In this document: positions 7,141 through 45,468 of the stretch, in pieces
Position numbering within the stretch: the stretch's first letter is position 1
Layout of the letters: each line of letters begins with the position of its first letter
Source: a virus
Lineage: Duplodnaviria; Heunggongvirae; Uroviricota; Caudoviricetes
Length of the DNA: 64,000 nt
IMG/VR virus record: IMGVR_UViG_3300035034_002381
Location: 1-64,000 of that record
Reading direction: 5' to 3' (one strand)
Position numbers and translations under genes: made by a program
Notes under the pieces: model-generated
What the model was told of the DNA's origin: nothing
Seen by the model: the letters and a program-made list of their open reading frames with translations, nothing else
Databases searched by the model: none

Positions 7141-7224
7141 TAATAAAGTACTAAGTGATATTTGTAAACAATTAAAAAATAAGAATATCGAATGTGGCTT
7201 TGATGATGCATTCGACCCTAGTTA

Positions 7225-7790: not shown

Positions 7791-7839
7791 GGAATACGTT
7801 TGCTTCTATACACAATAATTCAAAATATAAGACTTGAAA

Positions 7840-8004
7840 ATGAAAAGATTTTTTAGAGTTGCTAGTATTACATCATTAATTGTTCTGTGTCTATTCACAT
7901 TTTTAATGCACGCGTTTCCATGGGAATGGTCAACTGATATTAGATTATATTGCATATTCACAATGGTTTCTTCATCGATTGTCGCGTATTTCGTAAGCCG
8001 TTAA
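7840..8004 (+). CDS. small membrane protein
   Basis: 54-aa ORF below the track cutoff; two hydrophobic helices; followed by a strong terminator. Confidence 0.5.
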   Translation: MKRFFRVASITSLIVLCLFTFLMHAFPWEWSTDIRLYCIFTMVSSSIVAYFVSR

Positions 8005-25806: not shown

Positions 25807-26081
25807 TGAAAAAGGCAAGAACATTTACAGAATTTAATGAGTCTATATCAAACGAAGAAGAACTAAATGAAGCAGTCGATGTATTTATCGCAATTGCTGA
25901 AGCTTTAGACGTAAGTTTAGATGTCGCAAAAATGATAGTAGCTTTGGCAGGAGTCACCGGAACAGTAACTTTCGCAGCAGCAATGACAAAAATCCAAGAT
26001 GTATTGGCAAAGAAAAATCCTAAATTATCTAAGAAATTAGGTGATATTACAAAAGGAGCAAATAACGCGAGAACACAATAG
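25806..26081 (+). CDS. CTS-leader small protein (MKKARTFTEFNES)
   Basis: 91-aa ORF with a hydrophobic central segment. Confidence 0.6.
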   Translation: MKKARTFTEFNESISNEEELNEAVDVFIAIAEALDVSLDVAKMIVALAGVTGTVTFAAAMTKIQDVLAKKNPKLSKKLGDITKGANNARTQ

Positions 26082-26085
26082 AAAT

Positions 26086-26505
26086 ATGGATGATATTAGC
26101 AATGGAGGTGGAATTCTCCAAAAAACAAAGATACTTACAGTAACAAATAAGATTGGTTATGCCAAGAATTCTGAGGGTGTGACTTCTGTATTTGCTAATA
26201 CTGATATTGGAGCAGGCGATCTTATCGAGGTTGCGACCCTTCTAGAAGTTTCAGATATGGTGATGACAAATAGAGAAATTGCTGATCATGTTTTTACAGT
26301 AAATCCAGAAAGTAAACAATATGCGATCGGTTTAGGATTTGCTTGTTTATATCAACATAACGATAAACCTAACGCCGAGTGGAATATACCTAGCGATAAA
26401 AAGGAAATCAGATTTACTGCTAAAGACGACATAAAAAAATCTGAAGAAATCACAATTTCATACGGAAAGAATTATTTCCTAAGTAGAGAAAAGAAAGAGG
26501 AATAA
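26086..26505 (+). CDS. SET-domain protein (putative protein lysine methyltransferase)
   Basis: FACLYQHNDKPNAEW resembles the NHSxxPN motif and EEITISYGKNYF the ELtxdYg motif; start moved to the ATG at 26086 because the track start at 26041 is GTG and overlaps the previous gene. Confidence 0.55.
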   Translation: MDDISNGGGILQKTKILTVTNKIGYAKNSEGVTSVFANTDIGAGDLIEVATLLEVSDMVMTNREIADHVFTVNPESKQYAIGLGFACLYQHNDKPNAEWNIPSDKKEIRFTAKDDIKKSEEITISYGKNYFLSREKKEE

Positions 26506-26562: not shown

Positions 26563-26973
26563 ATGAAAGCCTTTACTTATGTTATAGATATTGATGACAC
26601 TATCAATATTACCGATAGAGATGAAAATAATATAGGACTGTATTCTCAGTCTCGGCCGATACTTAAAGTTATCAATAAAATTCGAAGACTTAAAAAAGAA
26701 GGCCACAAAATCATACTTTTTACTGCTAGAGGTATGCGTACATTTAATAATGATGTCAAAAAAATCGAAGATTTTCATAGAGAAACACTCGTTAAATGGT
26801 TAAATGACCATGAAGTCCCTTATGACGAACTACAGTTCGGTAAACCATGGGGCCCCCATGTAATATATGTCGATGATCGTGCTGTTACTATTAACCAATT
26901 TGTTTTGGGTGGTCCCGAAAATCACAGAAGTTATACACACATTAACAAAACAGTTATAAATGATGAATTATAA
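26563..26973 (+). CDS. HAD-superfamily phosphatase
   Basis: motif I VIDIDDTI, motif II ILFTARG, motif III/IV K...YVDDR. Confidence 0.65.
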   Translation: MKAFTYVIDIDDTINITDRDENNIGLYSQSRPILKVINKIRRLKKEGHKIILFTARGMRTFNNDVKKIEDFHRETLVKWLNDHEVPYDELQFGKPWGPHVIYVDDRAVTINQFVLGGPENHRSYTHINKTVINDEL

Positions 26974-28660
26974 AGTAATTATTCCCGCGGCAGGGAAGGC
27001 ATCAAGACTCAAGCCTTTATCTTCTTCAATGTCAAAATCAATGGTGCCAGTAAATGGTAAACCAATAATTTCATATATTCTTGATCAACTGTTTGAACTA
27101 GGAAATCCATTTCAAATAGTTATTGTTGAAAATGAGCTCGGTGATATTCAAGATTTTGTTAAAAACGCATATCCAAATTATTATGAAGAATCCCGTATTC
27201 TTTTTGCAACTCAAAAAGAAAGGTTAGGTCCTTTGCATGCTATTGAAATTGGTGCAAATAGGTTTCCGGAAAATGATAACATGCCAATTATGGTTTGGCT
27301 CGGAGATACAATCTGTTTGGAAATGGGTGAGTTGCCAGTTAATGAATCTTTATTAATTACATCGCCTGTCGCCGATTATAAAAGATGGTGTTTAGTAGAT
27401 AACGAGAATGTCTTCTATGATAAACCAGATAACAAACCAAGCACTAACCAAGCTTTAATAGGTATATATTATTTCCATGATTTTAAGGCCTTCTACGAGG
27501 CCCTAGATAAGGGAATGCAAGCTCCTATGATTAAAGATGAACATCAAATATCGGCTTTATTAGAAGCATATAAAAAACAACATATATTCAAAATCAGAAA
27601 AACTGATGAATGGTTTGATTGTGGTGAGTTACATACATTTTATGAATCTAAAGCAAGACTTCTTGGAAGATCTGCCAGGTCATTTAATAGTCTAGAAGTA
27701 AATACATTCCATAACACAATTACTAAATCTTCATTAACATTCGAAGGTAAACTGAAAATTGAGAATGAAAAAAATTGGTATTTAGGTTTACCTGAGAATA
27801 TTCAGATTCTCACACCTAGAGTATTAAAATCAAATTCAGGTACGCTAGTTATGTCGCAAGAACCTGGAACACCTCTTAATGAAATGTGGCTTTATGAGGA
27901 TTTGACTGATGATACATGGAAAAGAATAATTGATAAAACGTTACTTATACACAATAAAATTTTCTATCAATCTAGATATATTCCTAAATCTTCTAAATTA
28001 GATAGATTTGCTGCAAGAAAGGAAATGTATCTGACTAAAAATATTGACAGATTGACAGAAATTTCATTCCTGCCTTTTGCACAGAAAAATATAAAAATGA
28101 TTCGAGATTTTGTGCGGGTTACTGGTGAATTATTAATTGAAGATGAAGGTCGTTGGTCGCCACATTTTCATGGAGATTCTCACATGGGTAATATTTTATT
28201 TGAACCTTTACAGGGAAGTATGAAATTTTTGGATCCACGTGGAAAGTTTGGAAATATCGTAGGCATTGAGGGCGATATGTATTATGATATGGCTAAAATT
28301 GCGCAAGATTTTCTTTTACGCTATCCTGAAATTTTATCTGGTCATTATCATTTTAGTGGAGATAATTTTGACCAGCTTGAATTTTATAGAAATGACGAGA
28401 GATCTAAAACTATGCTAAAACATTTCAGAAAAAGAATTGGTGAATATGGTTATATTCCTAATCTTGTTTTAATGTTAGCAACTGTGCTTATCATAACTTG
28501 TATACCTTTTCATAAAGACGATCCAGAAAGACAAAAAGCATTTTGGTATATGGCAGTAAATGTTATTAAAGAAAGAGGGTGGAATATCCAACTCGAAGAT
28601 CATCTCAAAAAACAAAAATTACAATTATCAGACAAGATACATAATCTATACAACTTATAA
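26960..28660 (+). CDS. bifunctional nucleotidylyltransferase (N-terminal) / APH-fold small-molecule kinase (C-terminal): LicC-LicA-like or MurU-AmgK-like
   Basis: N-terminal IIPAAGKASRLKPLS...KSMVPVNGKPII is an NTP-transferase signature; C-terminal HGDSHMGN (H-x-D-x4-N), FLDPRG and GDMYYDMAKI resemble choline/aminoglycoside kinase motifs. Confidence 0.65.
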   Translation: MMNYKVIIPAAGKASRLKPLSSSMSKSMVPVNGKPIISYILDQLFELGNPFQIVIVENELGDIQDFVKNAYPNYYEESRILFATQKERLGPLHAIEIGANRFPENDNMPIMVWLGDTICLEMGELPVNESLLITSPVADYKRWCLVDNENVFYDKPDNKPSTNQALIGIYYFHDFKAFYEALDKGMQAPMIKDEHQISALLEAYKKQHIFKIRKTDEWFDCGELHTFYESKARLLGRSARSFNSLEVNTFHNTITKSSLTFEGKLKIENEKNWYLGLPENIQILTPRVLKSNSGTLVMSQEPGTPLNEMWLYEDLTDDTWKRIIDKTLLIHNKIFYQSRYIPKSSKLDRFAARKEMYLTKNIDRLTEISFLPFAQKNIKMIRDFVRVTGELLIEDEGRWSPHFHGDSHMGNILFEPLQGSMKFLDPRGKFGNIVGIEGDMYYDMAKIAQDFLLRYPEILSGHYHFSGDNFDQLEFYRNDERSKTMLKHFRKRIGEYGYIPNLVLMLATVLIITCIPFHKDDPERQKAFWYMAVNVIKERGWNIQLEDHLKKQKLQLSDKIHNLYNL

Positions 28661-28949: not shown

Positions 28950-29134
28950 TTTTTAAAGTAAGAGTAGAAGAAAAGAGCATAGAAGATGTTATAGAACTTA
29001 TTGAAACAGGAGAAGGGAAAAAAGGTCTCCAATTTGATCTATATAATGAAAAACCATATTTTTCACATGTAGAAATTTTCGTTAATACTGATGATTTCTA
29101 CACATTAAAGGATTATTTAAATGAACAAACCTAA
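28946..29134 (+). CDS. small hypothetical protein
   Basis: 62-aa ORF, ATGA overlap. Confidence 0.5.
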   Translation: MIFKVRVEEKSIEDVIELIETGEGKKGLQFDLYNEKPYFSHVEIFVNTDDFYTLKDYLNEQT

Positions 29135-31064
29135 GACTATATGTCTTGTTATGATTGTAAAAAATGAGGCAAAAAATTTACCTCGTTGTTTTTCTACGAT
29201 CAAACATATTATTGATTATTGGGTAATTGTTGATACTGGTTCAACTGATAACACACAGGAAGTTATACAGAAAGAGTTAGCCGATATTCCTGGTGTATTA
29301 ATGGAAAGACCGTGGGTCAATTTTGGTCATAATAGATCCGAATCTTTGGCTTTTGCTAAAAACAGAGCAGATTATCTTTTGCTTTGTGATGCTGATGAAC
29401 AAATTATACCTACACACAATTTTGACAAATCTGAGTTGACTCTTGATCAATATCATTTAAGATATAATGGGAGCTTAGATTATATGGTTCCTTATCTTAT
29501 TAAGTCTAATTTGGCTTGGAGATTTGTAGGAGTTACCCATGAATTTTTGACAGCAAGTGACACAAAATCTTCAGGTGAGATTAAAAGCCTTTCAATTAAA
29601 GATTGGGGAGATGGTGGAGCAAAATCTGATAAATTTGAAAGAGACATTAAATTGCTCGAACAAGGTTTGATTGATGAACCGAAGAATGTTAGGTATATGT
29701 TTTATCTAGCAAATTCTTATAAGAATACTAAGGATTTTGATAACGCAATCAAATGGTATAAAAAACGTATCGATGCAGGGGGTTGGATAGAAGAAGTTAC
29801 ATGTTCATATGAATATATGGGAGGATGTTATCAGCAGAAAAATGACCACGGGAATGCGATTAAAACATGGATAGATGGTTATGAATTTAATCCTTCTCGT
29901 GCTGAGTGTTTATATGAGGCAGGTAAATTACTTCGTGAAGAAAATAAGAATAGAATAGCTTACGAATTTTTACAAAAGGCTAAAGAAATTCCATATCCTA
30001 CTAACGATAGATTATTTATCAAAAGAGATGTTTATGAATATTTGATAGATTATGAACTGACTATTTGTGCATATTATGTTAAACCAGAATATGATATGAC
30101 CGAGACATTTAAAAGGCTAATCTTTTGGCCAAGTCATTTACAACAAAACATTATACAAAATTTTAAGTTTTGGGCTAAAGATTTGAATACACTTATAGGT
30201 CAAGAGGAAAGTATGATCTTGGCTAAAGATTTGATTAGTAATGATTTGGTTGAGGGTTTTACACCTAGTTCCCCATCAATTCTTTTTCATAAAAATCGCA
30301 AGTACATAAATGTGCGCCAAGTATCATATAAAATTGACGAAAATGGTAAGTATTTAGATCGTGCAAGTGGAGGTCATTGTAAACATGTGAATACAATTAA
30401 CACAATGTATTGGACTGATGGACCCTCATATGACACGGAAAATTTTAAACCCAATGATATTTCTACTAAACATGTGAATGGTATTGAAGATCTAAAACTA
30501 TATACACACAATGGAGTAATCAAATACACTGGGACAAAATGGTTGGATTATAACAAAATTTCTATAGTTATTGGTGAGTATACTAAAGAAGGTCTAGATA
30601 ATTATGCTATTCTAGAGTCTCCAGAAGGAAGGAATGTTGAAAAAAATTGGGTACCGTTTGGATTAGATAATGAAGAACTTTTTGTATATGATTGGAATCC
30701 AATAAAAATTGGAAGAATCAAAAATAATAAACTAGTAATCAAAAATTTAAAAACTAGTTTTCCTAACTTGCGTGGATCAGCTCCTGGTAAACTTATTGGA
30801 GATCATATCTATTTTTTATGTCATTTTGTAGAATATTCTACACCAAGAATTTACTATCATATCTTCATTAAAATGCATAAAGATAATTGGGAAAAAATCG
30901 AGATTTCTAAACCGTTTGTTTTTGAAAAACCACAAATAGAATATTCAGTAGGATTTGATTATAATATTAAGACTGATGATATACATATTGCATATAGTGT
31001 AAATGATTCGAATGCAAGAATCAAATCTTATTCACAAACACAATTTCAAAAACTTTTTACTTAA
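29121..31064 (+). CDS. GT2-family glycosyltransferase with TPR region and large C-terminal domain
   Basis: ICLVMIVKNEAKNLPRC...VIVDTGSTDNT...LLLCDADE is the GT2 (SpsA-like) pattern; TPR-like YMFYLANSYKNTKDFDNAIKWYKKRI. Confidence 0.65.
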   Translation: MNKPKTICLVMIVKNEAKNLPRCFSTIKHIIDYWVIVDTGSTDNTQEVIQKELADIPGVLMERPWVNFGHNRSESLAFAKNRADYLLLCDADEQIIPTHNFDKSELTLDQYHLRYNGSLDYMVPYLIKSNLAWRFVGVTHEFLTASDTKSSGEIKSLSIKDWGDGGAKSDKFERDIKLLEQGLIDEPKNVRYMFYLANSYKNTKDFDNAIKWYKKRIDAGGWIEEVTCSYEYMGGCYQQKNDHGNAIKTWIDGYEFNPSRAECLYEAGKLLREENKNRIAYEFLQKAKEIPYPTNDRLFIKRDVYEYLIDYELTICAYYVKPEYDMTETFKRLIFWPSHLQQNIIQNFKFWAKDLNTLIGQEESMILAKDLISNDLVEGFTPSSPSILFHKNRKYINVRQVSYKIDENGKYLDRASGGHCKHVNTINTMYWTDGPSYDTENFKPNDISTKHVNGIEDLKLYTHNGVIKYTGTKWLDYNKISIVIGEYTKEGLDNYAILESPEGRNVEKNWVPFGLDNEELFVYDWNPIKIGRIKNNKLVIKNLKTSFPNLRGSAPGKLIGDHIYFLCHFVEYSTPRIYYHIFIKMHKDNWEKIEISKPFVFEKPQIEYSVGFDYNIKTDDIHIAYSVNDSNARIKSYSQTQFQKLFT

Positions 31065-32362
31065 TGTACATTATAAAAAACAATAAACTTGAATCTACTG
31101 ATAATATCGATTTATTTTTTAATGAGATAAATGTTGGACAACATATTGCTAAATATGGATATTTCGAAAGTGACCTTATTAATTGGTTAAAGCTTACATA
31201 TAAAAATAATGATAAAATCTTTTTAGATTTAGGAGCGCACATAGGTTCATATTCAATAGAATTAGCAGAAAATTTTCATTCAGTTCATTCATTTGAACCT
31301 AATCCAACAGTCTATAATCATTTATGTGCTAATGTTGCATTAAAGAGATTATCAAATAGGGTATTTCCACACAGAGTTGCATTATCGGATAATAAATCTA
31401 AACAGCCATATTATGAGAGATCCAAAGATGGTGGAGGTAATGGAATTGAAGTTGTAAGAGAGAACGATAAGCACTCATTCTTTGTAGAATCTAAATGTTT
31501 AGATGATTATTCTTTCGATAAAGAAATCGGTTTGATTAAAATTGATATCGAAGGTCATGAGTATAAAGCTATTTTGGGTGCATATGAAACTTTGAAAAAC
31601 TCATATTTCCCACCTATAATTTTCGAATCTTGGGCGCAAAATACACACCCAGAATATTCACAAGAAATACTTTTAGAAATTCGTGATAAAACATTTGATG
31701 TATTAAAGGATTATGGATACACTGTTAAATCCATAAGTGGATATAATGAAATGTTTATTGCTGTTCAAGAGCGTGAAAAATCTCAAGAAGATATTATTGT
31801 TGAAGGTCTTTTGACAGATAAGTTAGACGTATGGCTTAACTCACCTGGAGGGACTCGAAGCAATTATATAGCCGATGTTCTAGAAAAAAGTAATTTAAGA
31901 GTGAGAAACGAATCCTGGTATAAGTATGGTTGTCATTGGACTTCTCCTTTATTTGAAAGGGAATTTAAAACTACAAGATTGTTTTGCTACACTAGCGATA
32001 TCGGACTCGCATTGACAAGTCAGTTAAATGCCAATACTATTGATAAACTGAATTTTGCAGATTTTTATAATGAACCATGGGATTTATATCGATGGATACA
32101 AAATATTAAAAAACAAGTGATTAACTGGTCGGATCCTGGCGTATTCTTTTTAAATACCGACTATTTAAATGATAAAGATATTCAGTCTGAATTTAAAACT
32201 CTTACTGGAGATAGTTTAGACATATCAGATTTCAGACTTGACCGTAAATCTAAAAAATTACATCCTGCATTAATACAATACATGGATGAGATTAATGAGA
32301 TTAATGAGTTATTAGCAAAATTACCTAATGCCGGTTTTGGCGGAGAAGTTGATGAAGGTTAA
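31064..32362 (+). CDS. FkbM-family methyltransferase with extra C-terminal domain
   Basis: DLGAHIGSYSIELAE...VHSFEPNPTVYNHLCANV...KIDIEGHE. Confidence 0.6.
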   Translation: MYIIKNNKLESTDNIDLFFNEINVGQHIAKYGYFESDLINWLKLTYKNNDKIFLDLGAHIGSYSIELAENFHSVHSFEPNPTVYNHLCANVALKRLSNRVFPHRVALSDNKSKQPYYERSKDGGGNGIEVVRENDKHSFFVESKCLDDYSFDKEIGLIKIDIEGHEYKAILGAYETLKNSYFPPIIFESWAQNTHPEYSQEILLEIRDKTFDVLKDYGYTVKSISGYNEMFIAVQEREKSQEDIIVEGLLTDKLDVWLNSPGGTRSNYIADVLEKSNLRVRNESWYKYGCHWTSPLFEREFKTTRLFCYTSDIGLALTSQLNANTIDKLNFADFYNEPWDLYRWIQNIKKQVINWSDPGVFFLNTDYLNDKDIQSEFKTLTGDSLDISDFRLDRKSKKLHPALIQYMDEINEINELLAKLPNAGFGGEVDEG

Positions 32363-34122: not shown

Positions 34123-35022
34123 ATGATATCAGAAGAAAAATTTCCCGATGGACAAATTAATTTTAAAGCAAATACAGAGGACATCAAAAGTCTTTTAACA
34201 CCACCATACATTTTATCAAATGATAATGCGATAAATTTTACAATTGATCTAAGTAACTGGGATAAATTTCAAACTTTGTTGGCAGCCAATGCAAAATTTA
34301 GACAAACGCACAAACAAATTAATTTACATATAGGTTATCTTTTTGGTTCAAGAAGTGACCGTAAATTTGAACATGACGGAATTAACTATTTTCGTGATGT
34401 AATTGCTAAAACAATCAATGATCAAAATTTCAACAAAGTTACTGTATTTGATCCACACTCACTTGCAGTAGAAAATGCAATTAATAATTGTGAGAGTATT
34501 CATCCGTTCCCACAAATCAATCACCATTTTTTAAATATGGTTGGAAATTTAGATTTATCTGAATATGAAATTGTTATAGCGTCTCCAGACCTTGGGGCAT
34601 ACAAAAAAGTCTTTGGAATTTTTGCTAAATTTTCCGAAAAATATCCAAACATACATTTTAATTTTATTTCCGCAAATAAAATTCGTAGTCTGTCTGGTGA
34701 TATTTCTATGGTTTTAAATCCACCATATAAAGAATTTGACAAATCAAAAAAACGAATTCTATATTTAATTGATGATATTTGTGATGGCGGGAGGACCTTT
34801 ATAGAATTTGCTAAACTTCTTAACGAAGATTTTGAGAAAAAGTATCTATATGTATCACATGGAATATTTTCTAAAGGTCTTGATCCATTATTAGAACATT
34901 TCGATAAAATTTTTACTACAAACAGTATTTCGAATACTTATATCAAATATCTAACAAACGATAATACCATTCTAAATTCTAACATTCTTTTTACCACATT
35001 TATTTCGCAACGCAATGAATAA
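34123..35022 (+). CDS. ribose-phosphate pyrophosphokinase (Prs)-like enzyme; candidate ADPR-pyrophosphate synthetase (Adps) of NARP1
   Basis: 299 aa; VFDPHSLAVENAI resembles the Prs DLHA loop, and YLIDDICDGGRTF is a type I PRPP-binding loop. Confidence 0.6.
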   Translation: MISEEKFPDGQINFKANTEDIKSLLTPPYILSNDNAINFTIDLSNWDKFQTLLAANAKFRQTHKQINLHIGYLFGSRSDRKFEHDGINYFRDVIAKTINDQNFNKVTVFDPHSLAVENAINNCESIHPFPQINHHFLNMVGNLDLSEYEIVIASPDLGAYKKVFGIFAKFSEKYPNIHFNFISANKIRSLSGDISMVLNPPYKEFDKSKKRILYLIDDICDGGRTFIEFAKLLNEDFEKKYLYVSHGIFSKGLDPLLEHFDKIFTTNSISNTYIKYLTNDNTILNSNILFTTFISQRNE

Positions 35023-35989: not shown

Positions 35990-35995
35990 AAAGAT

Positions 35996-37790: not shown

Positions 37791-39107
37791 ATGAAAAGAT
37801 CTGGTATTAAAGTAGCGGTATTTCCCATGGGTTCAATTATCCGATTTAGGAAAGATGGAATCAAAAGATCGTTTGGTCGTTTAGAATATTATAATTTGAT
37901 TTGGGCGTTGGCCAGAAATCCAAGTATTTCGGAAATTTGGCTTTTACAAGTTTCTGATTGGGAACAATTGACTGATGATGAAAAAATTGATTTTGATCCT
38001 AGAAAAGTTATTCGTAACATTTATGCGGAATTTAAAGTAGACAAACCTAATAGTAAAAAACAAGAATCTTACGCTGATCTTTGGAACAAAATTTCTCATC
38101 TTAAGCAACCTGATTTTGCAATTGTATTTTCTACACAAGGTCTTACTAGAATTTCTATACCAAATATTATACCTAAAGTAAAAAATCCTGAAGAAAAAGC
38201 TAAATGTTTAGAAATGACAATACGCTATTGTTCTTCACAAATGTATTATCTAAACAATTCAGAAATTCCATATTTTTTGGTAGTTAATGATGGCAGATTT
38301 TTGTATACTAATACACATACAAAATATCTGGATATGTTTAATTTACCCAAAGAAATCATGGGATTTTACAAAAATGATGATTATATACTTCATCATTATG
38401 ATAAAATGCCGGATGATGGTGGCAAAATGACTACTGATGTTGTTAAGTTATCATACAGTAAAATGATTTGGCTTAATAATATCAGTGAAAAAATCATAGA
38501 CCCTGCCAACATAGAGAAAACTGAAAAGTTTTCTATTGTAGCTATGCAGGCAGCTTATGGTAAAGATAAACATGATCCTAGATATTCTATTCTAAAGGAG
38601 TGGTTTTTAGACGTAGATGGAAATGAAGATGTTTCGATTTATGGTAAATGGGGAGAATCTTATGTTAAAGATTATCAACATTTTAAAGGCTTAAAGCCAC
38701 ATACTGAAATTGATGAAATTTTCAAGAAAACTAGGTACACATTATTGATTCCAACAGAACCTTTATGGGTAACTACGAAAATATGTGAGATGTTGAAATT
38801 GGGTGTTGTCCCGTTTTTGCATCCTAGTTATGATGAAAAAAATCTATCATTTGGAGAGGATTCATTTTTTAGAGTAAAAAATCCGGAAGATTTAAAAAAG
38901 AAGATTTCATTTTTAGAAAAAAATCCAGATAAAAGAATCAAGCTCATACAAAAGGCTCAAGAAAAATATATGGAAGGTGTCACAAACGGAACTTGTGTCG
39001 TCGACGCAATTAATCCATATCTTCAACGGGCTAATATTGATGTAGAATTGCAACATGGATTTAGTGATGAACTAATTCGTAAGCGCAAAGTTAAAAAATT
39101 ATTTTAA
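37791..39107 (+). CDS. GT-B-like glycosyltransferase, possibly T4 beta-glucosyltransferase-like (tentative)
   Basis: 438 aa; C-terminal layout FSIVAMQAAYGKDKHDPRY...YTLLIPTEPLWVTTKICEMLKLGVVPFL...FFRVKNPEDLKKKISFLEKNP resembles the T4 BGT C-terminal half from memory. Confidence 0.4.
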   Translation: MKRSGIKVAVFPMGSIIRFRKDGIKRSFGRLEYYNLIWALARNPSISEIWLLQVSDWEQLTDDEKIDFDPRKVIRNIYAEFKVDKPNSKKQESYADLWNKISHLKQPDFAIVFSTQGLTRISIPNIIPKVKNPEEKAKCLEMTIRYCSSQMYYLNNSEIPYFLVVNDGRFLYTNTHTKYLDMFNLPKEIMGFYKNDDYILHHYDKMPDDGGKMTTDVVKLSYSKMIWLNNISEKIIDPANIEKTEKFSIVAMQAAYGKDKHDPRYSILKEWFLDVDGNEDVSIYGKWGESYVKDYQHFKGLKPHTEIDEIFKKTRYTLLIPTEPLWVTTKICEMLKLGVVPFLHPSYDEKNLSFGEDSFFRVKNPEDLKKKISFLEKNPDKRIKLIQKAQEKYMEGVTNGTCVVDAINPYLQRANIDVELQHGFSDELIRKRKVKKLF

Positions 39108-39110
39108 ATT

Positions 39111-40319
39111 ATGAAGAATAAATTTTCTAAGGATGGACATTGGAGATTCGGTACTATAGTTCCATTAATCGGGGGAATGACCATATCCAACCAACAAGCA
39201 ACCGGAGATAATCCGGACTTTTTAATATCTTATCCAGCGTTTGCAGGCAATGATTCTCATTGTGTTAATCATTTTAAAGATACCCCATATTATGTAGTCG
39301 ACCCAGAAACTAATGAATTACCTGAAGACGATACTTTTCAAAATGTAGATTTTGTGTCTGCAGTGTGCCCATGTGCAGGACTTTCTATGTTAAATACTTC
39401 TAAGAAAAGAGGATCTGATGCAGAAATGAATAATTGGATGTATAAATCTGCAGAATTAGTTTTAGAACAAATTAAACCCAAAGTTTTTTGGGGGGAGAAT
39501 GCACCAGGTCTATATACAAAATCTGGTGAAGGTGTAGTCAAAAAATTGAGAGAAATTGCTGAAAAGAATGGTTATGTACTTTCATTAGTCAAAACTAATA
39601 CCTTTTTACATGGTATACCACAACATAGAACTAGAACTTTTTACTTTTTTTGGCAAGGTAAACATGCGCCAATACTGAATTATACCGAGCGGGATGCACC
39701 AACTCTTAAAGAATATCTAGATCAAATTCCTGAAAATGCTTCTATGCAAGATGAAAAATTCGGCTTAGAAAGTATGAATAGTCTTTGGTTTAAATTCTTA
39801 AAAGATCAAAACATAAAAATTTCAGATGTACAAAAAAGTACGTGTAAATCAATTATGGATTATTGTGTAGCCGAAAAATTGATGCCGAAAATGGTTGATT
39901 GGGGTGAAGAAAATGGATATGATAAAATGGTCAGGACTGCTAAGCATATTCTACATAAACAATCTATGGGTAAAGGTTGGTGGGACGCTACACCATTAGT
40001 ACCAACAGATACTATTAATGCGCTGATTAGTAAGAATGCTGGAATTGTCCACCCGAACGGAGAAAGACCAATTAATACCCGAGAAGCTTTATGGTTAATG
40101 GGATTACCACATGATTTTACTATGGTCGATTATGACAATAGAAAAAATAGCAATCACATTTGCCAAAACGTACCGGTAACCACTGCAAAAGACTGGACAT
40201 TCGAAGTGATGAAATTTATCAATAAAGATATTGAAAAAATTGCAACGCCGTTTCTAAAACAAAACAATATCAAACAAAGAATAGATTTACAAGAAAATAA
40301 ATCCAAAGCACTTTTTTAA
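39111..40319 (+). CDS. DNA (cytosine-5) methyltransferase-family enzyme
   Basis: motif IV AVCPCAGLS, motif VI FWGENAPGL, motif VIII GIPQHRTRTFYF. Confidence 0.75.
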   Translation: MKNKFSKDGHWRFGTIVPLIGGMTISNQQATGDNPDFLISYPAFAGNDSHCVNHFKDTPYYVVDPETNELPEDDTFQNVDFVSAVCPCAGLSMLNTSKKRGSDAEMNNWMYKSAELVLEQIKPKVFWGENAPGLYTKSGEGVVKKLREIAEKNGYVLSLVKTNTFLHGIPQHRTRTFYFFWQGKHAPILNYTERDAPTLKEYLDQIPENASMQDEKFGLESMNSLWFKFLKDQNIKISDVQKSTCKSIMDYCVAEKLMPKMVDWGEENGYDKMVRTAKHILHKQSMGKGWWDATPLVPTDTINALISKNAGIVHPNGERPINTREALWLMGLPHDFTMVDYDNRKNSNHICQNVPVTTAKDWTFEVMKFINKDIEKIATPFLKQNNIKQRIDLQENKSKALF

Positions 40320-40321
40320 AT

Positions 40322-41761
40322 ATGAAACCTTTATTTGTAATAGAAGACGAAATACAAAATAAGTCTAATATATTCGAACTAATTAATCCACAAAAATTAG
40401 ATCCGAATAAAAAGACTATATTAATAATCACATACAAAAATTTTGCTGGTGATTTTGACTATATTTATGGATTTAATCACAAGATTATTGAATTATTAAA
40501 AGATCAATATAATATTGTATTTGCTGGAAAGGAAATTAAAAAGAATGTCATCGATATAGATAATTTCTATTTAATTGATATGAAAGGTTATACGAGTTTA
40601 AATCAGAATAGATTTAAGCGCAAAAAAGAAGATCCTAACAGTAACCAAATTAACAGAAATATTTTATGGGAAGAATTTGAATCTGCGTTCGGTGATTTAG
40701 AAATTGATTTAATTTTTTATGCGACACCAGAGTATGCGATTTTACCTCATGGTAAATCTTATCATAAAGATTTCAAAGAAATACAAAACGAAATTCATGA
40801 TTATGTAGGCGCAGATACTAAAAAGATTCAGCGTATTAACGAAATTATGTACGATATCTATGAAAATTATGATACCCATGCATCTATTTTAATGTTTTCT
40901 GCCTGGCATAAAAATGTCATGATGAACTTGCCGGTTTTTCTAAAAGAAAGAAATTCGTTTAAAGTCATTGCATTTTCTATTGATCCTGCAAATACTTATC
41001 GATATTTGGAACACCATGGAATAGAATGTACCAATTTTTATTTTGAAGAAGATAAACGTGGTACTCGCAATTTCGAAAAATTTCCAATAGCACATCTTCA
41101 ACATTTAATTTTTGAAAACAACGAAAATCCTACAGAAAAATATAGTTTAGAAAAAACTACAGATTTTTTCTTTATGGGAACGATTATTCAAGAAAAGGGA
41201 AGTAGAATGCAGATGTGGTATGAATTTTTATCAGATTTAAAATTAGACGATAAATCTAATTTTTGGATCCCAATTAAACATAATGGAATTTACCGAACTA
41301 AAAAACAAGAAACTAGTGGTCATACCAAAAAGGGTTTACAGATTATTGATGAAAAATTCACAGACATTAAAAATGCTATCATAAATCATCCCAATTTTTC
41401 TGGACATTTATTACCATCAGAAGTCAAAAAACATATTGTAGCTTATAAATATTCATTAGTATTGCGATGTGTTTCTATTTATGATAGTCTAAATTTTAGA
41501 CCTATTTATTATGTTTATTTAAACATTCTTCCATTTTTAGATCATATGTATGATCCAGATTATTTACAGATTCCTAAGAAATTTCAAGACAAATTAGCAG
41601 TATCTAATTCACGAGATATCGAGGATAGAATCAAATATTATAATCAAAATCCAAAAGAAAGAATTCAGTTATTAAAAGAAATGAGAGAGTTTTTTGAAAT
41701 AGACGAGTTTTTAGAAGATTGGAAAAACATAACACTAAAACATATAGATCATGCTAAATAA
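40322..41761 (+). CDS. paralogous GT-B-like glycosyltransferase (tentative)
   Basis: 479 aa; FFFMGTIIQEKGSR...KYSLVLRCVSIYDSLNFRPIYYVYLNILPFL...AVSNSRDIEDRIKYYNQNP has the same layout as 37791. Confidence 0.35.
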   Translation: MKPLFVIEDEIQNKSNIFELINPQKLDPNKKTILIITYKNFAGDFDYIYGFNHKIIELLKDQYNIVFAGKEIKKNVIDIDNFYLIDMKGYTSLNQNRFKRKKEDPNSNQINRNILWEEFESAFGDLEIDLIFYATPEYAILPHGKSYHKDFKEIQNEIHDYVGADTKKIQRINEIMYDIYENYDTHASILMFSAWHKNVMMNLPVFLKERNSFKVIAFSIDPANTYRYLEHHGIECTNFYFEEDKRGTRNFEKFPIAHLQHLIFENNENPTEKYSLEKTTDFFFMGTIIQEKGSRMQMWYEFLSDLKLDDKSNFWIPIKHNGIYRTKKQETSGHTKKGLQIIDEKFTDIKNAIINHPNFSGHLLPSEVKKHIVAYKYSLVLRCVSIYDSLNFRPIYYVYLNILPFLDHMYDPDYLQIPKKFQDKLAVSNSRDIEDRIKYYNQNPKERIQLLKEMREFFEIDEFLEDWKNITLKHIDHAK

Positions 41762-42398
41762 GATATTTAAAAGTTTGAGTAATTCTGAAAATGAAGCATT
41801 ATGTGTACAAAGAACTAATCTTTTATTCGAAGCATTAGATATTATAGAAAAACATAATGGGAAAGCTTGGTTAGATTGTGGTACTTTGTTAGGTGCGTAT
41901 AGAGATGGTGAATATATTCCATGGGACGTCGATGTAGATTTAGGAATTAATATCGAGGATGTTACTGAGGAAATGCTAAATGATTTCAGAGATAAATATA
42001 ATATACGACACGATAATGGAAACTTAGATCAATACAAATTTTGCTCATTTTATAAGAGAGATGAAAATGGTGATAATTACAAATTTAGAAGATGTAATTT
42101 ATGGATTGATTTACATATGTACTATCCAAATTATGATGGTACAAGAACTATGACAATTACTACAGGAAAAATTAGAGCACCTAAAAAAATCTTTCCAGCA
42201 CCTGCTGAATGTATCGAGAATTTAGAACAAATTGAATGGCAAGGTAGAAAAGTAAATATTCCTAGTAAAACTGTAAAATATTTAGAACAATGGTATGGAT
42301 ATGATTGGGACGTACCTAACGATAAATGGAAAATGTCTCCGAGTTGGTACGATAATCCAACAAATGACAAAATTATTCAAGGTAAAACCCTCTTTTAA
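41751..42398 (+). CDS. LicD-family phosphotransferase (phosphocholine/phospho-alditol transferase family)
   Basis: KAWLDCGTLLGAYRDGEYIPWDVDVDLGI matches the LicD signature W.d.GTLLGa.R...IPWDdD.D. Confidence 0.75.
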   Translation: MLNKIFKSLSNSENEALCVQRTNLLFEALDIIEKHNGKAWLDCGTLLGAYRDGEYIPWDVDVDLGINIEDVTEEMLNDFRDKYNIRHDNGNLDQYKFCSFYKRDENGDNYKFRRCNLWIDLHMYYPNYDGTRTMTITTGKIRAPKKIFPAPAECIENLEQIEWQGRKVNIPSKTVKYLEQWYGYDWDVPNDKWKMSPSWYDNPTNDKIIQGKTLF

Positions 42399-42416: not shown

Positions 42417-43178
42417 ATGCATATATTAAATGAATATTTTGACAAGATTTATATTACCAACCTCGACTCGGCCAAAGATAGATATGAAAGATTATCTAAA
42501 GAACTGGATTCATTTGGCGTTGTTTATGAAAGATTCAAAGCATTGACTCCAGATGATGCAAGAAAGGTATTTGCTGAAAAAGGCCTAAAGATTCCTAAAA
42601 GTAATAGTGGAGCTCTTGGTTGCGCAACTTCACATTATATATGCTGTCAACAGGCTGCGAAAAATGGACTTAAAAGAATTTTGATTCTTGAAGATGATGC
42701 AAGAATAACCGATATAGATTTTAATCAAGAGACTCAAAATTTAGTTGAACAAATAAGAAAAACCGACTGGTTTTATCTAAAGCTTGGTTATAATATCACT
42801 AACCAGATGTTAGACGAAAATTTTGAGTTTCATAGAGTTTCAGAAAATTTGTTTAATCTTTCAAAAAGTTCTATGACCACCGCTATAGCTTTCAATATCG
42901 AAAAAATCGTAGAGGATGAGAATGCTTCCACAGTTTTTATTTCTGATCACGCATTAGAAAATAGTAAATTGAATATTCATATTGACCATAGATTGTTTAT
43001 GATGTGTAACGAATTCGGAATTCTACAATGCCATTATTATCCAGCAATATTTACTCAGACTGATGGGTATTCATACATAGGAAAAGAAGAAAGGAAATTC
43101 TCTAATATTGATAAAAGAACAAACAGAATATTCAAAGAGCATATACAATCTTCTAGCTCAACAAAAAAATTATTTTAA
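42417..43178 (+). CDS. glycosyltransferase family 25 (LgtB/Lic2B-like)
   Basis: FDKIYITNLDSAKDRYERL..., GALGCATSHY and ILILEDDARI. Confidence 0.65.
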   Translation: MHILNEYFDKIYITNLDSAKDRYERLSKELDSFGVVYERFKALTPDDARKVFAEKGLKIPKSNSGALGCATSHYICCQQAAKNGLKRILILEDDARITDIDFNQETQNLVEQIRKTDWFYLKLGYNITNQMLDENFEFHRVSENLFNLSKSSMTTAIAFNIEKIVEDENASTVFISDHALENSKLNIHIDHRLFMMCNEFGILQCHYYPAIFTQTDGYSYIGKEERKFSNIDKRTNRIFKEHIQSSSSTKKLF

Positions 43179-43196: not shown

Positions 43197-43976
43197 ATGG
43201 AATTTTTAAATATACTACAATCGGAATTACAATCGGGATTTATTTACATACCTAATAGAGGCAATGCTGGGGATGTTGTCATTCAACAATCTACTATTAA
43301 ATTTTTTGAAAAAAATAATCTAAACTTCGAATTAGGAAAAAACACTACAACTTATGTTGGGGAAAATCTAGTTTATGGTGGGGGTGGAAATTTGATTGGA
43401 AAATACCAACCGGCTAAAAAATTCATAAAATTAAATGCGGAAAAAAATCATATAATGATATTACCGCATACAATTAAGAACAGCGAAAAGTCTTTAAATA
43501 TGCTGAATAAGGATTCTATTGTTTTTTGCAGAGAAAGAATATCTCATGAATATGTTAGTAAATTTATTGAAAAATGTTATTTACATAAAGATATGGCTTT
43601 TCATCTAGATTTAGAATCTTATAAAAAGGAATCTAAATATGAAGTAGGAAATATATTTAGAATGGATGTCGAATCTTCTAATAACGTTAAAAAAATTCCA
43701 TCTAATAATGTGGATATATCCAGTGTTTTTAATCGTAGAAATCAGCATACAAATTTAGAAGTAGCTCAAGCTGTATTTGATGATTTTGTTAATTATATAG
43801 CAGATTTCGAAATTGTAAACACAGATAGATTACATATTGCAATTATTGCTGCAATATTGGGAAAAAATGTTAATCTTTATCCTAACTCATATTATAAAAA
43901 TAAAGCCGTATATGACTATACATTATCGTTAGAATATCCCAACGTCAATTTTATCGATGAAGTAAAATATAGATGA
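43197..43976 (+). CDS. polysaccharide pyruvyl transferase family protein
   Basis: PNRGNAGDVVIQ, VYGGGGNL and NTDRLHIAIIAAILGKNV. Confidence 0.6.
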   Translation: MEFLNILQSELQSGFIYIPNRGNAGDVVIQQSTIKFFEKNNLNFELGKNTTTYVGENLVYGGGGNLIGKYQPAKKFIKLNAEKNHIMILPHTIKNSEKSLNMLNKDSIVFCRERISHEYVSKFIEKCYLHKDMAFHLDLESYKKESKYEVGNIFRMDVESSNNVKKIPSNNVDISSVFNRRNQHTNLEVAQAVFDDFVNYIADFEIVNTDRLHIAIIAAILGKNVNLYPNSYYKNKAVYDYTLSLEYPNVNFIDEVKYR

Positions 43977-44030: not shown

Positions 44031-44603
44031 ATGAAAACAATTATTATTGAAGGATGTGATAGAGTAGGAAAAGATACAGTTTGTAATGGAATAAAACTGA
44101 CTGCGGACTGTTTACTTTATCGACATTGGCTTAAACCTAAAGGTCAAACTAATGATGAAAGAGTTAATTATCAAAAGACAACATTTAAAAAGGAATTTGA
44201 TTTACGTAAATCTTTTTTGGATGATTGGTATCTTAATGATAATGATAAAAATTCTGATTTAATTCTTTGGAACAGAAGTCATATTGGAGAATATGTTTAT
44301 GGAAAACTATATCGAGACTATGATCCAAATTGGATTTATAATCTGGAAAATCTTTATAATTTTTCTGATAATAACATTTATTTGGTAATGTTATATGCAG
44401 ATCCAGATTTTTTGTGTGAGAATGATGATGGACATTCATTCAGTTCTGATATTGAAGGTAAAACGCAAGAAATCAATTTATTCCACGAAGCAGTGGATAA
44501 AAGTCTAATACCAAATAAAATAAAAATAAAAGTAAATGACGGAAAACGTTACCGAGACAGAAAAGAAATTAGAAAAGAAATTTTTGATCGAATCTTCAAT
44601 TAA
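44031..44603 (+). CDS. deoxynucleoside monophosphate kinase (T4 gp1-like)
   Basis: IIIEGCDRVGKDT resembles T4 gp1 FLSGVKRSGKDT; 190 aa; directly upstream of the hydroxymethylase. Confidence 0.6.
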   Translation: MKTIIIEGCDRVGKDTVCNGIKLTADCLLYRHWLKPKGQTNDERVNYQKTTFKKEFDLRKSFLDDWYLNDNDKNSDLILWNRSHIGEYVYGKLYRDYDPNWIYNLENLYNFSDNNIYLVMLYADPDFLCENDDGHSFSSDIEGKTQEINLFHEAVDKSLIPNKIKIKVNDGKRYRDRKEIRKEIFDRIFN

Positions 44604-45468
44604 TCAAAGATTCCAAGAACTTATTGAGCAGATTGAGATATCTGCAGAAATGAATGGTACAGTTAATCCACGAGATTTACTGGTTAAAGAATCACTACTT
44701 ACAGGATTTTCTATTGATCCAAGATATCCATGTATAGATTTCGAAGCAAGAAAATTCAACTATAAATATTTTGCTGCTGAGGTTGCATGGTATTTATTAA
44801 AAGATAATACAACAGAATTTATTTCTAAGTTTTCCAATTTCTGGAATAATATTACAAATCCAGATGGAACTATTAATTCTAATTATGGAAAAATTCTATT
44901 AACACAAATAAACAATACTATCACACCAATAGCATGGGTAGTAAATTCTTTAAGAAAAGATAAAAATTCTAGACAAGCAATTGCATATATTGGAAGTAAG
45001 GATTTTCAATATGAAGGAAATAAAGATTTTGTGTGTACTCAATATATTTTGTTTTTTATTCGAAACGATGAACTTCATATGAAAGTTCAAATGAGATCAA
45101 ACGATATTTTTTATGGATTATCTTATGATGCTCCTTGGTTTTCGTTAGTTCATCAAAATACATTTCTTGAACTAAAAGAATTATATCCAGAATTAAAAAT
45201 TGGAAAGTATTTTCATTTTTCTGATAACTCACATTTTTATCAAAGACATTTTAGTAAAGCTCAAGAAGTCTTACAAGAAGAGGTTAAGCTTGGTCCTAAA
45301 ATTGTTCTTGAGAAACCTTTATGGAGAACTTATGAAAATGGTAATTGCGTTATTACTGAAACGGCTAGTAATTATATAGATTTTTTCAATAAAAATTTAG
45401 GTGATTTATCCGAGTATAAAAACGAACAATTTAAAGAAGTTCTCAAAAAAATCGTAAAAATTAACTAA
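44536..45468 (+). CDS. deoxycytidylate hydroxymethylase (T4 gp42-like; thymidylate synthase superfamily)
   Basis: GTINSNYG, NSRQAIAYI, DFVCTQYILFFIRN (catalytic Cys), MRSNDIFYGLSYDAPW (Asp where ThyA has Asn) and NSHFYQRHF parallel T4 gp42 blocks; start uncertain (68-nt overlap; alternative ATG at 44650). Confidence 0.75.
   Translation: MTENVTETEKKLEKKFLIESSINQRFQELIEQIEISAEMNGTVNPRDLLVKESLLTGFSIDPRYPCIDFEARKFNYKYFAAEVAWYLLKDNTTEFISKFSNFWNNITNPDGTINSNYGKILLTQINNTITPIAWVVNSLRKDKNSRQAIAYIGSKDFQYEGNKDFVCTQYILFFIRNDELHMKVQMRSNDIFYGLSYDAPWFSLVHQNTFLELKELYPELKIGKYFHFSDNSHFYQRHFSKAQEVLQEEVKLGPKIVLEKPLWRTYENGNCVITETASNYIDFFNKNLGDLSEYKNEQFKEVLKKIVKIN

Follow-up and report, generated by a model that had tools for sequence, protein, structure and literature searches.

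We describe here a two-gene cassette at positions 26563-28660 of a 64,000-nucleotide stretch of viral DNA (positions 1 to 64,000 of the IMG/VR record IMGVR_UViG_3300035034_002381), to which we refer below as the window. The first gene encodes a small phosphatase of the HAD superfamily and the second a fusion of a sugar nucleotidyltransferase with a small-molecule kinase. In our opinion this is likely to be an AfhF/AfhE-type cassette, which would make a nucleoside diphosphate (NDP) sugar, with uridine diphosphate (UDP)-D-arabinofuranose or another NDP-pentofuranose as the likely product, for the glycosylation of hydroxymethylcytosine (hmC) in phage DNA by new glycosyltransferase-like proteins. 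The domain folds, the intact catalytic motifs, the full-length homology to enzymes of RB69-type phages and the conserved synteny were all computed here, and the genomic context is the strongest new evidence among them.

Members of the family to which this divergent cassette belongs were characterised in 2025-2026, hence the finding is not new at its core. What is new lies in the module around it: an hmC-type precursor, a new glycosyltransferase family, a constant C5 methyltransferase, and a variable zone with LicD, GT25, a pyruvyl transferase and methyltransferases. Further, the range of the AfhE/AfhF cassette is widened far past the RB69-type Straboviridae, to Lak-related huge phages and to Pseudoalteromonas, Stenotrophomonas and Enterococcus phages, mostly uncultivated. 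In these phages it is linked to the hmC-type precursor, to a candidate family of DNA glycosyltransferases and to the C5 methyltransferase.

The fusion protein, its phosphatase partner and the AfhE/AfhF pair

The fusion gene (26960-28660) encodes a single polypeptide of 566 amino acids (aa), in which an RmlA-like sugar-1-phosphate nucleotidyltransferase is joined to a small-molecule kinase of the APH fold. Residues 5-233 match PF00483 (NTP_transferase) at 6.2e-17, over the curated cut-off, and rmlA_long and Arch_glmU are the best NCBIfam matches of the N-terminal domain. With the AF2 model of the whole protein (pLDDT 92.6), the top 50 Foldseek matches are sugar-1-phosphate nucleotidyltransferases only, namely 47 RmlA-type glucose-1-phosphate thymidylyltransferases and three ST0452 chains (best 4.6e-14, about 250 aligned columns). 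Since these are matches of the N-terminal domain, the C-terminal domain was modelled separately. Taken by itself, the C-terminal half of this sequence gives no Pfam kinase match even at E <= 10, hence the APH-fold call was settled by Pfam counts across the family together with structure prediction. PF01636 (APH) is matched by 38 of 50 members of the fusion family (best 2.8e-7), ABC1 by 23, fructosamine kinase by 10 and Choline_kinase by one. The best or near-best structural matches are 5-methylthioribose kinase (MtnK), N-acetylhexosamine 1-kinase (NahK) and maltokinase, at 11-16% identity. Several of the top structural matches are thus anomeric sugar kinases, which is consistent with the C1-kinase activity reported for AfhE, and we predict that the domain is an anomeric (C1) kinase for a sugar phosphate. 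The PDB holds no AfhE-like structure.

Both active sites are well conserved in an alignment of 54 sequences that includes the RB69-type enzyme. In the N-terminal domain D116, D220 and G222 are invariant, while G12, R16 and K26 (53 of 54 each) and Q85 (52 of 54) are nearly so. In the kinase K256, E270, H404-G-D406, N411 and D425 do not vary, and neither do the HGD..N and DPRG motifs or several basic residues. We presume the catalytic roles of these residues from what is generally known of RmlA and APH enzymes.

The phosphatase gene lies directly upstream, and the start of the fusion gene precedes its stop codon, which gives an overlap of 14 nucleotides. The DIDDT motif can be read directly in its product. 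Of the family models, TIGR01689 (EcbF/BcbF, a phosphatase of capsule biosynthesis) matches best, at 3.2e-28, which is under the equivalog-level cut-off, and the best PDB relative is 1xpj (1.1e-18). Entry 9iqw also matches (5.6e-4) and is an RB69-type phage phosphatase, as it matches the Bas47 protein at 1e-86; throughout, Bas47 (bas47_0151 / 0150) stands in as the RB69-type representative for AfhE of phage HY126. The HAD-IIIA and GmhB models match weakly. By blastp the protein is 46% identical to its counterpart in Pseudoalteromonas phage XG4, 41% to that in Enterococcus phage 9183 and 29% (1.5e-6) to the Bas47 phosphatase. The HAD gene adjoins the fusion gene in phage and bacterial loci alike and accompanies it in all fusion-bearing loci examined save one, L014. 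With one small HAD domain, a DxDxT motif, homology to a solved phage enzyme and a gene beside that of the fusion, the protein corresponds to an AfhF-type phosphatase; we predict that it strips the non-anomeric phosphate from a sugar bisphosphate.

A separate observation concerns L014 (4271-6763), which comes from a metagenome-assembled genome (MAG) of a KSB1 bacterium. The fusion homolog there has 830 aa and carries a C-terminal TIR domain (PF13676, 7.5e-21). It is unusual for a sugar-activation enzyme to be joined to a domain of the immune type.

Searched by tblastn against phage genomes, the fusion has full-length matches in Pseudoalteromonas phage XG4, in Enterococcus phages 9183, TJE4 and Planchet and in Stenotrophomonas phage DLP_6. 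Weaker matches come from RB69-like coliphages, about 170 in number, in which the annotation of the gene reads 'putative enzyme involved in UDP-arabinose biosynthesis'. The gene order in Bas47 is phosphosugar isomerase, small open reading frame (ORF), 561-aa enzyme, phosphatase, 389-aa enzyme, small ORF and 'dCMP hydroxymethylase'. By blastp the fusion aligns with the Bas47 enzyme at 5e-16 (aa 5-539 against 3-503, about 24% identity). By hhalign, a profile of 50 window-clade sequences aligns with it at a probability of 99.2% and an E-value of 6.5e-20, over 484 columns spanning both domains, with the kinase motifs in register (HGDSHMGN and FLDPRG in the window clade, HGDPNFSN and FIDPRG in Bas47). 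The two also have non-catalytic residues in common: W143-C144, Y170, W273, R364, R427, K446 and Y455. Like AfhE, then, the fusion is a two-domain single polypeptide, homologous over its full length and with intact catalytic residues in both domains. A blastn search ('distant') with the 2.1-kb cassette region gave no match among 50,697 phage records, a pattern scan of viral contigs with the fusion gave five pattern matches of which none was confirmed, and a promoter/terminator scan observed 36 sites against 39.5 expected.

The Bas47/RB69-type module was proposed to serve UDP-arabinose synthesis in a 2018 paper on RB69 (PMC6024577). According to the account of He et al. 2026 that is given in PMC13326640, AfhE is an arabinose-5-phosphate 1-kinase and a UDP-arabinose pyrophosphorylase in one, and AfhF, a HAD phosphatase that depends on Mg, turns arabinofuranose-1,5-bisphosphate into the 1-phosphate. 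By the same account, the HY126 pair leads from D-arabinose-5-phosphate through the 1,5-bisphosphate and arabinose-1-phosphate to UDP-arabinofuranose, for arabinosylation of cytosine in DNA. The homologs named are RB69 gp52:53 and gp51 and DLP3 gp82 and gp81, for AfhE and AfhF respectively, and the top match of both RB69 gp51 and DLP3 gp81 is 1xpj (PMC13326640), which is also the best PDB match of the window HAD protein. Given the homology of both the fusion (24% identity) and the HAD protein (29%), the window pair belongs to the same family as the RB69-type pair, in a distant clade.

A proposed DNA-modification module around the cassette

In the relatives the cassette belongs to a compact core of six genes with an insertion zone whose content changes between loci and includes LicD, a TagD-like cytidylyltransferase, GT25, GT32, methyltransferases, a racemase and a pyruvyl transferase. 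One such arrangement is seen in L045, the closest relative with a long contig (fusion 53% identical), where genes for a SET-domain protein, HAD, the fusion, a 62-aa ORF, a 442-aa glycosyltransferase-like protein, the C5 methylase, a 191-aa kinase-like protein and ThyA form an uninterrupted series. L046 has the same set and a 483-aa protein in addition. In L007, a 318-kb contig, HAD, fusion, a 470-aa protein, the glycosyltransferase-like protein, GT25, the C5 methyltransferase, GT32, FkbM, the kinase-like protein and ThyA are encoded within 12 kb, and eight of the module proteins are 27-53% identical to window proteins. L005 has ThyA, dUTPase/DCD, HAD, fusion, glycosyltransferase-like and C5 methyltransferase genes just upstream of DNA polymerase, and phage XG4 has ThyA, HAD, fusion, the glycosyltransferase-like gene, one further ORF and the C5 methyltransferase. 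In Enterococcus phage 9183 the cassette lies amid genes for dTMP kinase, ThyA, dUTPase, RNase H, thymidine kinase and DNA polymerase.

Judged by its gene order, the window contains this six-gene core module in an expanded and split form (Table 1). About 9 kb separate the fusion from the glycosyltransferase-like gene and hold GT2-TPR, FkbM, DenV, exonuclease and NAD-salvage genes. A second insertion, between the C5 methyltransferase and the kinase-like gene, consists of the 479-aa protein, LicD, GT25 and the pyruvyl transferase.

Table 1. The cassette and the associated genes of the window
Feature	Coordinates	Strand	Evidence
HAD-superfamily phosphatase, AfhF-like, 136 aa	26563..26973	+	DIDDT motif; TIGR01689; PDB 1xpj/9iqw; Bas47 homology
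Fusion N-terminal domain (aa 1-239), sugar-1-phosphate nucleotidyltransferase, RmlA/GalU-like fold	26960..27676	+	PF00483; Foldseek; conserved residues
Fusion C-terminal domain (aa 240-566), APH/choline-kinase-fold small-molecule kinase	27677..28660	+	Family Pfam matches; motifs; structure
GT2 + TPR protein, directly downstream of the cassette	29121..31064	+	PF00535 3.7e-11
FkbM-type methyltransferase	31064..32362	+	PF05050 1.3e-15
GT-B-like protein, 438 aa, constant phage partner of the cassette	37791..39107	+	PF13524 Glyco_trans_1_2 2.7e-6, over cut-off
C5 cytosine DNA methyltransferase-like protein, 402 aa, constant module member	39111..40319	+	PF00145 8.5e-24; TIGR00675 dcm 5e-15
479-aa protein, distant paralog of the glycosyltransferase-like protein	40322..41761	+	No Pfam or PHROG match; synteny
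LicD-family phosphotransferase, 215 aa, accessory island member	41751..42398	+	PF04991 9.8e-17
GT25-family glycosyltransferase, 253 aa, accessory	42417..43178	+	PF01755 1.9e-17; weak TAGT 8e-4; PHROG 2835 glucosyltransferase
Polysaccharide pyruvyl transferase-like protein, 259 aa, accessory	43197..43976	+	PF04230 3.6e-13
dNMP (thymidylate)-kinase-like protein, 190 aa	44031..44603	+	Weak PF02223 (0.008); directly upstream of ThyA
ThyA-family enzyme, T4 gp42 dCMP hydroxymethylase type	44536..45468	+	PF00303 6.3e-18; best PDB 1b49

The ThyA homolog bears on the nature of the modified base. Its best PDB match is the T4 deoxycytidine monophosphate (dCMP) hydroxymethylase gp42 (1.4e-14, against 2.7e-9 for thymidylate synthase). 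The motif MRSND...SYD puts Asp at the positions of both D169 and N177 of the E. coli enzyme, and C146 is conserved, the same pattern as in gp42, which the T4 alignment gives independently. The Bas47 enzyme reads MRSQN, with Asn at position 169, and D169N is the signature of 5-hydroxy-dCMP synthases of the RB69 gp48 type (PMC13326640). As the window enzyme has Asp at position 169, it lacks this signature, and with its catalytic Cys and the Asp at the N177 position, the mark of cytosine specificity, it has the residues of a gp42-type hydroxymethylase, hence we predict hmC rather than 5-hydroxycytosine. An hmC-type precursor would set this lineage apart from all arabinosylating phages described to date.

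The deoxynucleoside monophosphate (dNMP)-kinase-like protein is 46-53% identical to the product of the gene preceding ThyA in L007, L045, L046, L009 and L011, and the 'nucleotide kinase' beside ThyA in RB69 (gp45) and DLP3 (gp78) is a matching arrangement (PMC13326640). The 382-aa ORF that follows ThyA in the window (45533-46681) has no Pfam, NCBIfam or PHROG match and no ortholog in the fetched loci. In L046 (12738-14993) the ThyA homolog is split into ORFs of 151 and 273 aa, with a gene for a NUMOD3 (HNH-type) homing endonuclease just downstream on the opposite strand, which points to an intron or some other mobile insertion.

The 438-aa GT-B-like protein is our candidate for the DNA glycosyltransferase that uses the activated sugar. 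Its orthologs adjoin the fusion in XG4, phage 9183, L005, L007, L008, L045 and L046, and the family was encountered only in metagenomic contigs and one phage record. One contig, of 64,373 bp, encodes an identical protein. The 479-aa protein, a candidate second glycosyltransferase, shares 35-50% identity with proteins in the corresponding position of L007, L046 and L009. A weak family relation between the two is seen in the match of the 479-aa protein to the L005/L006 orthologs of the 438-aa protein (1.9e-6) and in that of the 438-aa protein to the L007 ortholog of the 479-aa protein (6e-7).

Orthologs of the C5 methyltransferase (32-64% identity) are present in L003, L005, L007, L008, L045, L046, L009 and L011, and its motifs are apparently intact. 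We considered whether it could be CmoX, a DNA cytosine C5-carboxymethyltransferase, for which an SPPC motif, a carboxymethyl-binding Arg and a CmoA neighbour are the criteria (PMC12783734). This was rejected, as motif IV reads AVCPCAG and the scanned ORFs did not include one similar to CmoA. We also weighed a TET/JBP route (C5 methyltransferase, TET, glycosyltransferase); no dioxygenase match was found among the scanned ORFs, and the sole related signal was the weak TAGT match of the GT25 protein.

Among the accessory genes, GT25 has counterparts in the corresponding island of L007 and of the JGI contig MF2_ydiL. The pyruvyl transferase-like gene, which sits in the DNA-modification island of the window, is missing from all other fetched loci. 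The GT2-TPR and FkbM proteins could be further users or decorators of the glycan, although their membership of the module is uncertain: an FkbM methyltransferase is also found inside the contiguous L007 island, but no orthologs of the two window proteins were found in the other fetched loci.

A SET-domain protein is encoded in the window at 26041-26505, just upstream of the HAD gene. A SET gene is near HAD on its upstream side in L045 as well (4946-5713, one ORF between) and in L046 (2219-2692, three ORFs between).

The original prediction, made from the letters and a list of ORFs, had recognised much of this. The HAD, fusion and LicD frames exist as it placed them, the phosphatase is directly upstream of a protein with an NTP-transferase N-terminus and an APH-fold C-terminus, and both the LicD signature and the encoded dCMP hydroxymethylase are borne out by profile or structure matches. 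An NDP-sugar activation route was one of the options it offered, and we favour it on account of the kinase, the nucleotidyltransferase and the HAD phosphatase. Its suggestion that a DNA-linked glycan is decorated is likewise the most likely use, since the cassette travels with ThyA, dNMP-kinase-like, C5 methyltransferase and glycosyltransferase genes.

Its description of the genome as a T4-like phage is only loosely true. The window does encode a Gp23-family major capsid protein (19214-21007) and a prohead protease, but the nearest relatives of the capsid protein belong to a 462-kb uncultured phage and to the Prevotella Lak megaphages (40-43% identity), and fusion homologs lie on contigs of 170-320 kb. 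Hence the source of the window is probably a huge phage that infects Bacteroidota, rather than a T4-like phage of the classical kind. A large aquatic phage lineage with Bacteroidota hosts has been described that has a closer ancestor with Lak than with T4 and several core glycosyltransferases (PMC12619734), and it is plausible that the window phage has its home there.

Some other genes of the window deserve mention. A NAD-salvage set (34123-37714 and 48873-49403) comprises a phosphoribosyl-pyrophosphate-synthetase-like protein, an NAPRTase/NadV-like protein (PF04095, 8e-38) and a NUDIX hydrolase. Between the first two, at 35015-35989, a zeta-toxin/AAA_33 kinase is fused to an NT5C-like domain, resembling a polynucleotide kinase-phosphatase. 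An M43 pappalysin-like metallopeptidase (PF05572, 1.5e-10; 12713-14710) and an SPFH/Band-7 protein (1201-2661) are unusual phage cargo. The gene that follows the major capsid gene (21117-22802) has weak REase_MTES_1575 and DUF7487 matches, and the gene at the equivalent position in L045 (2465-3964) has a weak match to Mom, a DNA-modification protein.

The sugar, its acceptor and the place of LicD

The route that we propose would proceed as follows, with the order of steps and the identity of substrate and nucleotide taken by analogy from the HY126 AfhE/AfhF report. The APH-fold kinase would phosphorylate the anomeric hydroxyl of a host sugar phosphate, by analogy D-arabinose-5-phosphate from KdsD of a Gram-negative host, and the HAD phosphatase would take off the original, non-anomeric phosphate. 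The RmlA-like domain would then combine the sugar-1-phosphate with a nucleoside triphosphate (NTP), probably UTP or dTTP, into an NDP-sugar, by analogy UDP-D-arabinofuranose. The modified nucleotide, 5-hydroxymethyl-dCMP, would come from the ThyA homolog and its dNMP-kinase-like neighbour and would be the attachment point of the glycan. In phage DNA, the presumed acceptor, 5-hydroxymethylcytosine would be glycosylated with that donor by the GT-B-like enzyme and perhaps also by the 479-aa protein. LicD, GT25, the pyruvyl transferase and FkbM may be accessory, lineage-variable decorators inserted in the same island, with a LicD donor that would not come from the fusion.

A number of observations weigh against this proposal. 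All arabinosylating phages described so far have a D169N 5-hydroxy-dCMP synthase, which the window ThyA is not. With an identity of about 24% to the characterised clade, the sugar specificity may differ. To our knowledge enterococci make no 3-deoxy-D-manno-octulosonic acid (Kdo) and so need not make arabinose-5-phosphate, yet Enterococcus phage 9183 has the cassette. No homologs of RB69-type arabinosyltransferases or of gp50 were found in the window. The RB69 (gp55) and DLP3 (gp83) clusters, and Bas47 too, encode a SIS-domain arabinose-5-phosphate isomerase. The Bas47 isomerase matched nothing in the window or, up to about 10 kb from the fusion, in the loci of the clade, and Pfam scans of the window ORFs gave no SIS match either; the 64 kb visible here are probably part of a much larger genome, and the host could supply the substrate. 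The profile of the 438-aa protein finds no sequence relatives in the PDB, and its assignment as a glycosyltransferase comes from one modest Pfam match. The conserved C5 methyltransferase is unexplained, since it would be left without a substrate in a phage predicted to replace cytosine with hmC; it might have an unrecognised role in the same DNA-glycan pathway. Finally, in bacterial MAGs the fusion and HAD alone are conserved, and their neighbours there are those of surface-glycan loci (a second NTP transferase, a GT-C/PMT_2 protein and DUF354), so the cassette as such is not tied to DNA. In our opinion it is a general sugar-activation unit that phages joined to DNA-modification genes.

Several of these points are in keeping with the same kinase, phosphatase and nucleotidyltransferase logic acting on a sugar other than D-arabinose. 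Ribose-5-phosphate could for example be turned through the 1,5-bisphosphate and ribose-1-phosphate into NDP-ribofuranose, or another pentose or hexose phosphate could be used, and the DNA glycan would then be unlike that of RB69-type phages. The low identity to the RB69-type enzyme, the lack of the isomerase in all loci of the clade, the occurrence in an Enterococcus phage, glycosyltransferases unrelated to the RB69 arabinosyltransferases and a base precursor of the hmC and not the 5-hydroxycytosine type would all agree with this. However, the shared non-catalytic residues listed above (W143-C144 to Y455) are invariant across both clades, which argues for a conserved substrate. Arabinose-5-phosphate is also available in Gram-negative hosts through the Kdo pathway, so that a phage isomerase would not be needed there, and some bacterial fusion homologs carry a KdsD-like SIS domain (PMC6024577). 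We see a different sugar as possible but not probable.

It is also conceivable, although we think it unlikely, that the NDP-sugar goes not to DNA but to virion proteins or host envelope glycans, as in the capsid glycosylation of mycobacteriophages or in receptor masking. The bacterial homologs with their surface-glycan neighbours point in this direction. So does the position of the window cassette just after the structural block, beside GT2-TPR and FkbM, and enzymes of the pyruvyl transferase, LicD, GT25 and FkbM families classically decorate polysaccharides. On the contrary, in the relatives the cassette is contiguous with ThyA, the dNMP-kinase-like gene and the C5 DNA methylase, and in phage 9183 and L005 it lies amid replication and nucleotide genes. 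Moreover, the sole experimentally studied homologs serve DNA arabinosylation, according to PMC13326640.

The place of LicD has to be judged separately. The protein is a genuine member of its family: PF04991 matches with 62.2 bits against a cut-off of 22.6, and its N-terminal DxD-containing motif, LLGAYRDGEYIPWDVDVD (the WDVDVD region), aligns to the catalytic DxD region of FKRP (6kaj, 1.1e-8). The Mf1 cholinephosphotransferase model matches at 4e-20, under its cut-off. We found no tblastn match to LicD in the 50,697 phage records and seven homologs in a large protein database, six of them at 53-58% identity. Three of these six close homologs could be read in context (L009, L011 and MF2_ydiL), and all lie between the C5 methyltransferase and ThyA genes, with a PF01467 nucleotidyltransferase of 137-140 aa one or a few genes downstream. 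The best models of this protein in L009 and L011 are RfaE domain II (7e-23) and the TagD glycerol-3-phosphate cytidylyltransferase (5e-19). LicD thus has its own donor synthase in the relatives, which makes it independent of the fusion. A small cytidylyltransferase of this kind was looked for in the 64-kb window and not found, hence the donor has to be supplied by the host or by a part of the genome outside the window. LicD is furthermore absent from all nine other fusion-bearing phage loci (L001-L005, L007, L008, L045 and L046). We predict that it adds a phospho-alcohol from a cytidine diphosphate (CDP) donor that the fusion does not make.

In MF2_ydiL (6935-7976) an Asp/Glu racemase gene lies upstream of and adjoining the small cytidylyltransferase gene that follows LicD. 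The arrangement is a hint of another kind of substituent, perhaps one that includes an amino acid.

With LicD, GT25 and the pyruvyl transferase inside a DNA-modification island, phospho-substituted or pyruvylated DNA glycans are a possibility. We would go further only as speculation, and one that we ourselves find rather doubtful: the sugar linked to hmC might be built into a decorated DNA oligosaccharide, in which LicD adds a phosphodiester-linked alcohol (glycerol-phosphate or similar), the pyruvyl transferase a pyruvate ketal and FkbM O-methyl groups. The variable zone in any case provides a concrete set of candidate DNA hypermodifications. If the accessory enzymes do act on a DNA glycan, DNA chemistry would gain phosphodiester-linked and pyruvylated sugars, that is, teichoic-acid or capsule-style chemistry on a nucleobase, which is undescribed for any DNA, and this would be of relevance to restriction and CRISPR evasion and to enzymatic DNA labelling. 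No paper was found that describes a LicD-type transferase in a DNA-modification island. The statement of the original prediction that no phage DNA modification uses such chemistry is outdated for the fusion and HAD pair, given AfhE/AfhF (PMC13326640), whereas for LicD, with no match in the phage records either, it apparently still holds.

The central suggestion of that prediction was different, namely that the fusion is LicA-like and LicC-like and completes a single route with LicD. We disagree with it. LicC (1jyk) aligns to aa 4-71 of the fusion only (6.8e-6), which is the N-terminal nucleotide-binding loop, while RmlA-type entries align over 5-235, that is, domain-wide, and the profile search agrees. 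Among APH-fold kinases, the kinase domain is not specifically allied to the choline/ethanolamine family, and its structural matches contain no specific LicA signal. Nor does LicD accompany the fusion in the nine other phage loci that carry it. Of the alternatives that had been named alongside, MurU of the AmgK/MurU pair fares no better, as its models match aa 5-62 only (7e-7, 29 bits against a cut-off of 250), and the matches to HddC are weak and far under the cut-offs. Hence a LicA-like alcohol kinase and LicC-like cytidylyltransferase that make CDP-choline, CDP-ethanolamine or similar for transfer by LicD to a glycan are very improbable: LicC and LicA (4r7b/4r77) are indeed among the sequence or structure matches, a genuine LicD-family gene lies in this part of the genome and no separate cytidylyltransferase for it was found in the window, but the nucleotidyltransferase matches are with sugar-1-phosphate enzymes, Choline_kinase is matched by a single family member, the HAD phosphatase has no role in a Lic route, the homolog AfhE is, according to PMC13326640, a sugar-phosphate kinase and UDP-sugar pyrophosphorylase, and LicD, missing from the nine other fusion loci, is paired with a TagD/RfaE-like enzyme of its own where its context could be read.

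Comparison with known systems

The closest parallel to the window cassette is provided by the AfhE/AfhF systems of Escherichia phage HY126, RB69, DLP3 and Bas47, in which UDP-D-arabinofuranose is made for DNA with arabinosyl-5-hydroxycytosine. They have the same layout of an N-terminal nucleotidyltransferase and a C-terminal APH-fold kinase, likewise a small adjacent HAD phosphatase of the 1xpj/9iqw family, and likewise a tie to a ThyA-family enzyme, a thymidylate-kinase-like gene and glycosyltransferases. The differences are equally clear. HAD precedes the fusion in the window and follows it in Bas47; unlike the RB69-type clusters, the window is without the SIS isomerase, a gp50-like protein and an RB69-type arabinosyltransferase; its ThyA is of the hydroxymethylase type (Asp at 169) and not a D169N 5-hydroxy-dCMP synthase; its module has a constant C5 DNA methylase and the new glycosyltransferase-like family; and the phage itself is huge and Lak-related, whereas the RB69-type phages are members of the Straboviridae.

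With T4, in which gp42 acts together with alpha- and beta-glucosyltransferases, the window shares the gp42-type active-site pattern and a predicted strategy, in which hmC would be incorporated and then glycosylated on the DNA. T4 draws on host UDP-glucose and, unlike the window phage, needs no sugar-activation cassette, and the window glycosyltransferases are unrelated in sequence to its glucosyltransferases.

The Lic pathway, including the LicCA fusions of Treponema, has superfamilies in common with the window (the APH/choline-kinase fold, the GT-A-like nucleotidyltransferase fold and LicD), and there is a true LicD gene in the window island. Unlike in that pathway, the window nucleotidyltransferase is RmlA-like over its full length, the kinase has no specific LicA affinity, the HAD phosphatase is an obligate partner, and LicD and the fusion are apart in most loci, LicD having its own cytidylyltransferase in the relatives.

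In its logic the cassette is identical to the NDP-heptose pathway for D-glycero-D-manno-heptose (HddA/HldE kinase, GmhB HAD phosphatase, HddC/HldE nucleotidyltransferase), in which an anomeric kinase produces a bisphosphate, the HAD enzyme a sugar-1-phosphate and the nucleotidyltransferase the NDP-sugar. The HddA and HldE kinases have GHMP or ribokinase folds, not APH. In our opinion the likeness is a mechanistic analogy and not family membership, the HddC and GmhB matches being weak and far under the cut-offs. MtnK, NahK and maltokinase phosphorylate the C1 hydroxyl of a sugar, the reaction that is reported for the kinase domain of AfhE, and MtnK acts on C1 of a 5-substituted pentofuranose. 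They have other substrates, and none of them is fused to a nucleotidyltransferase, as the window kinase is.

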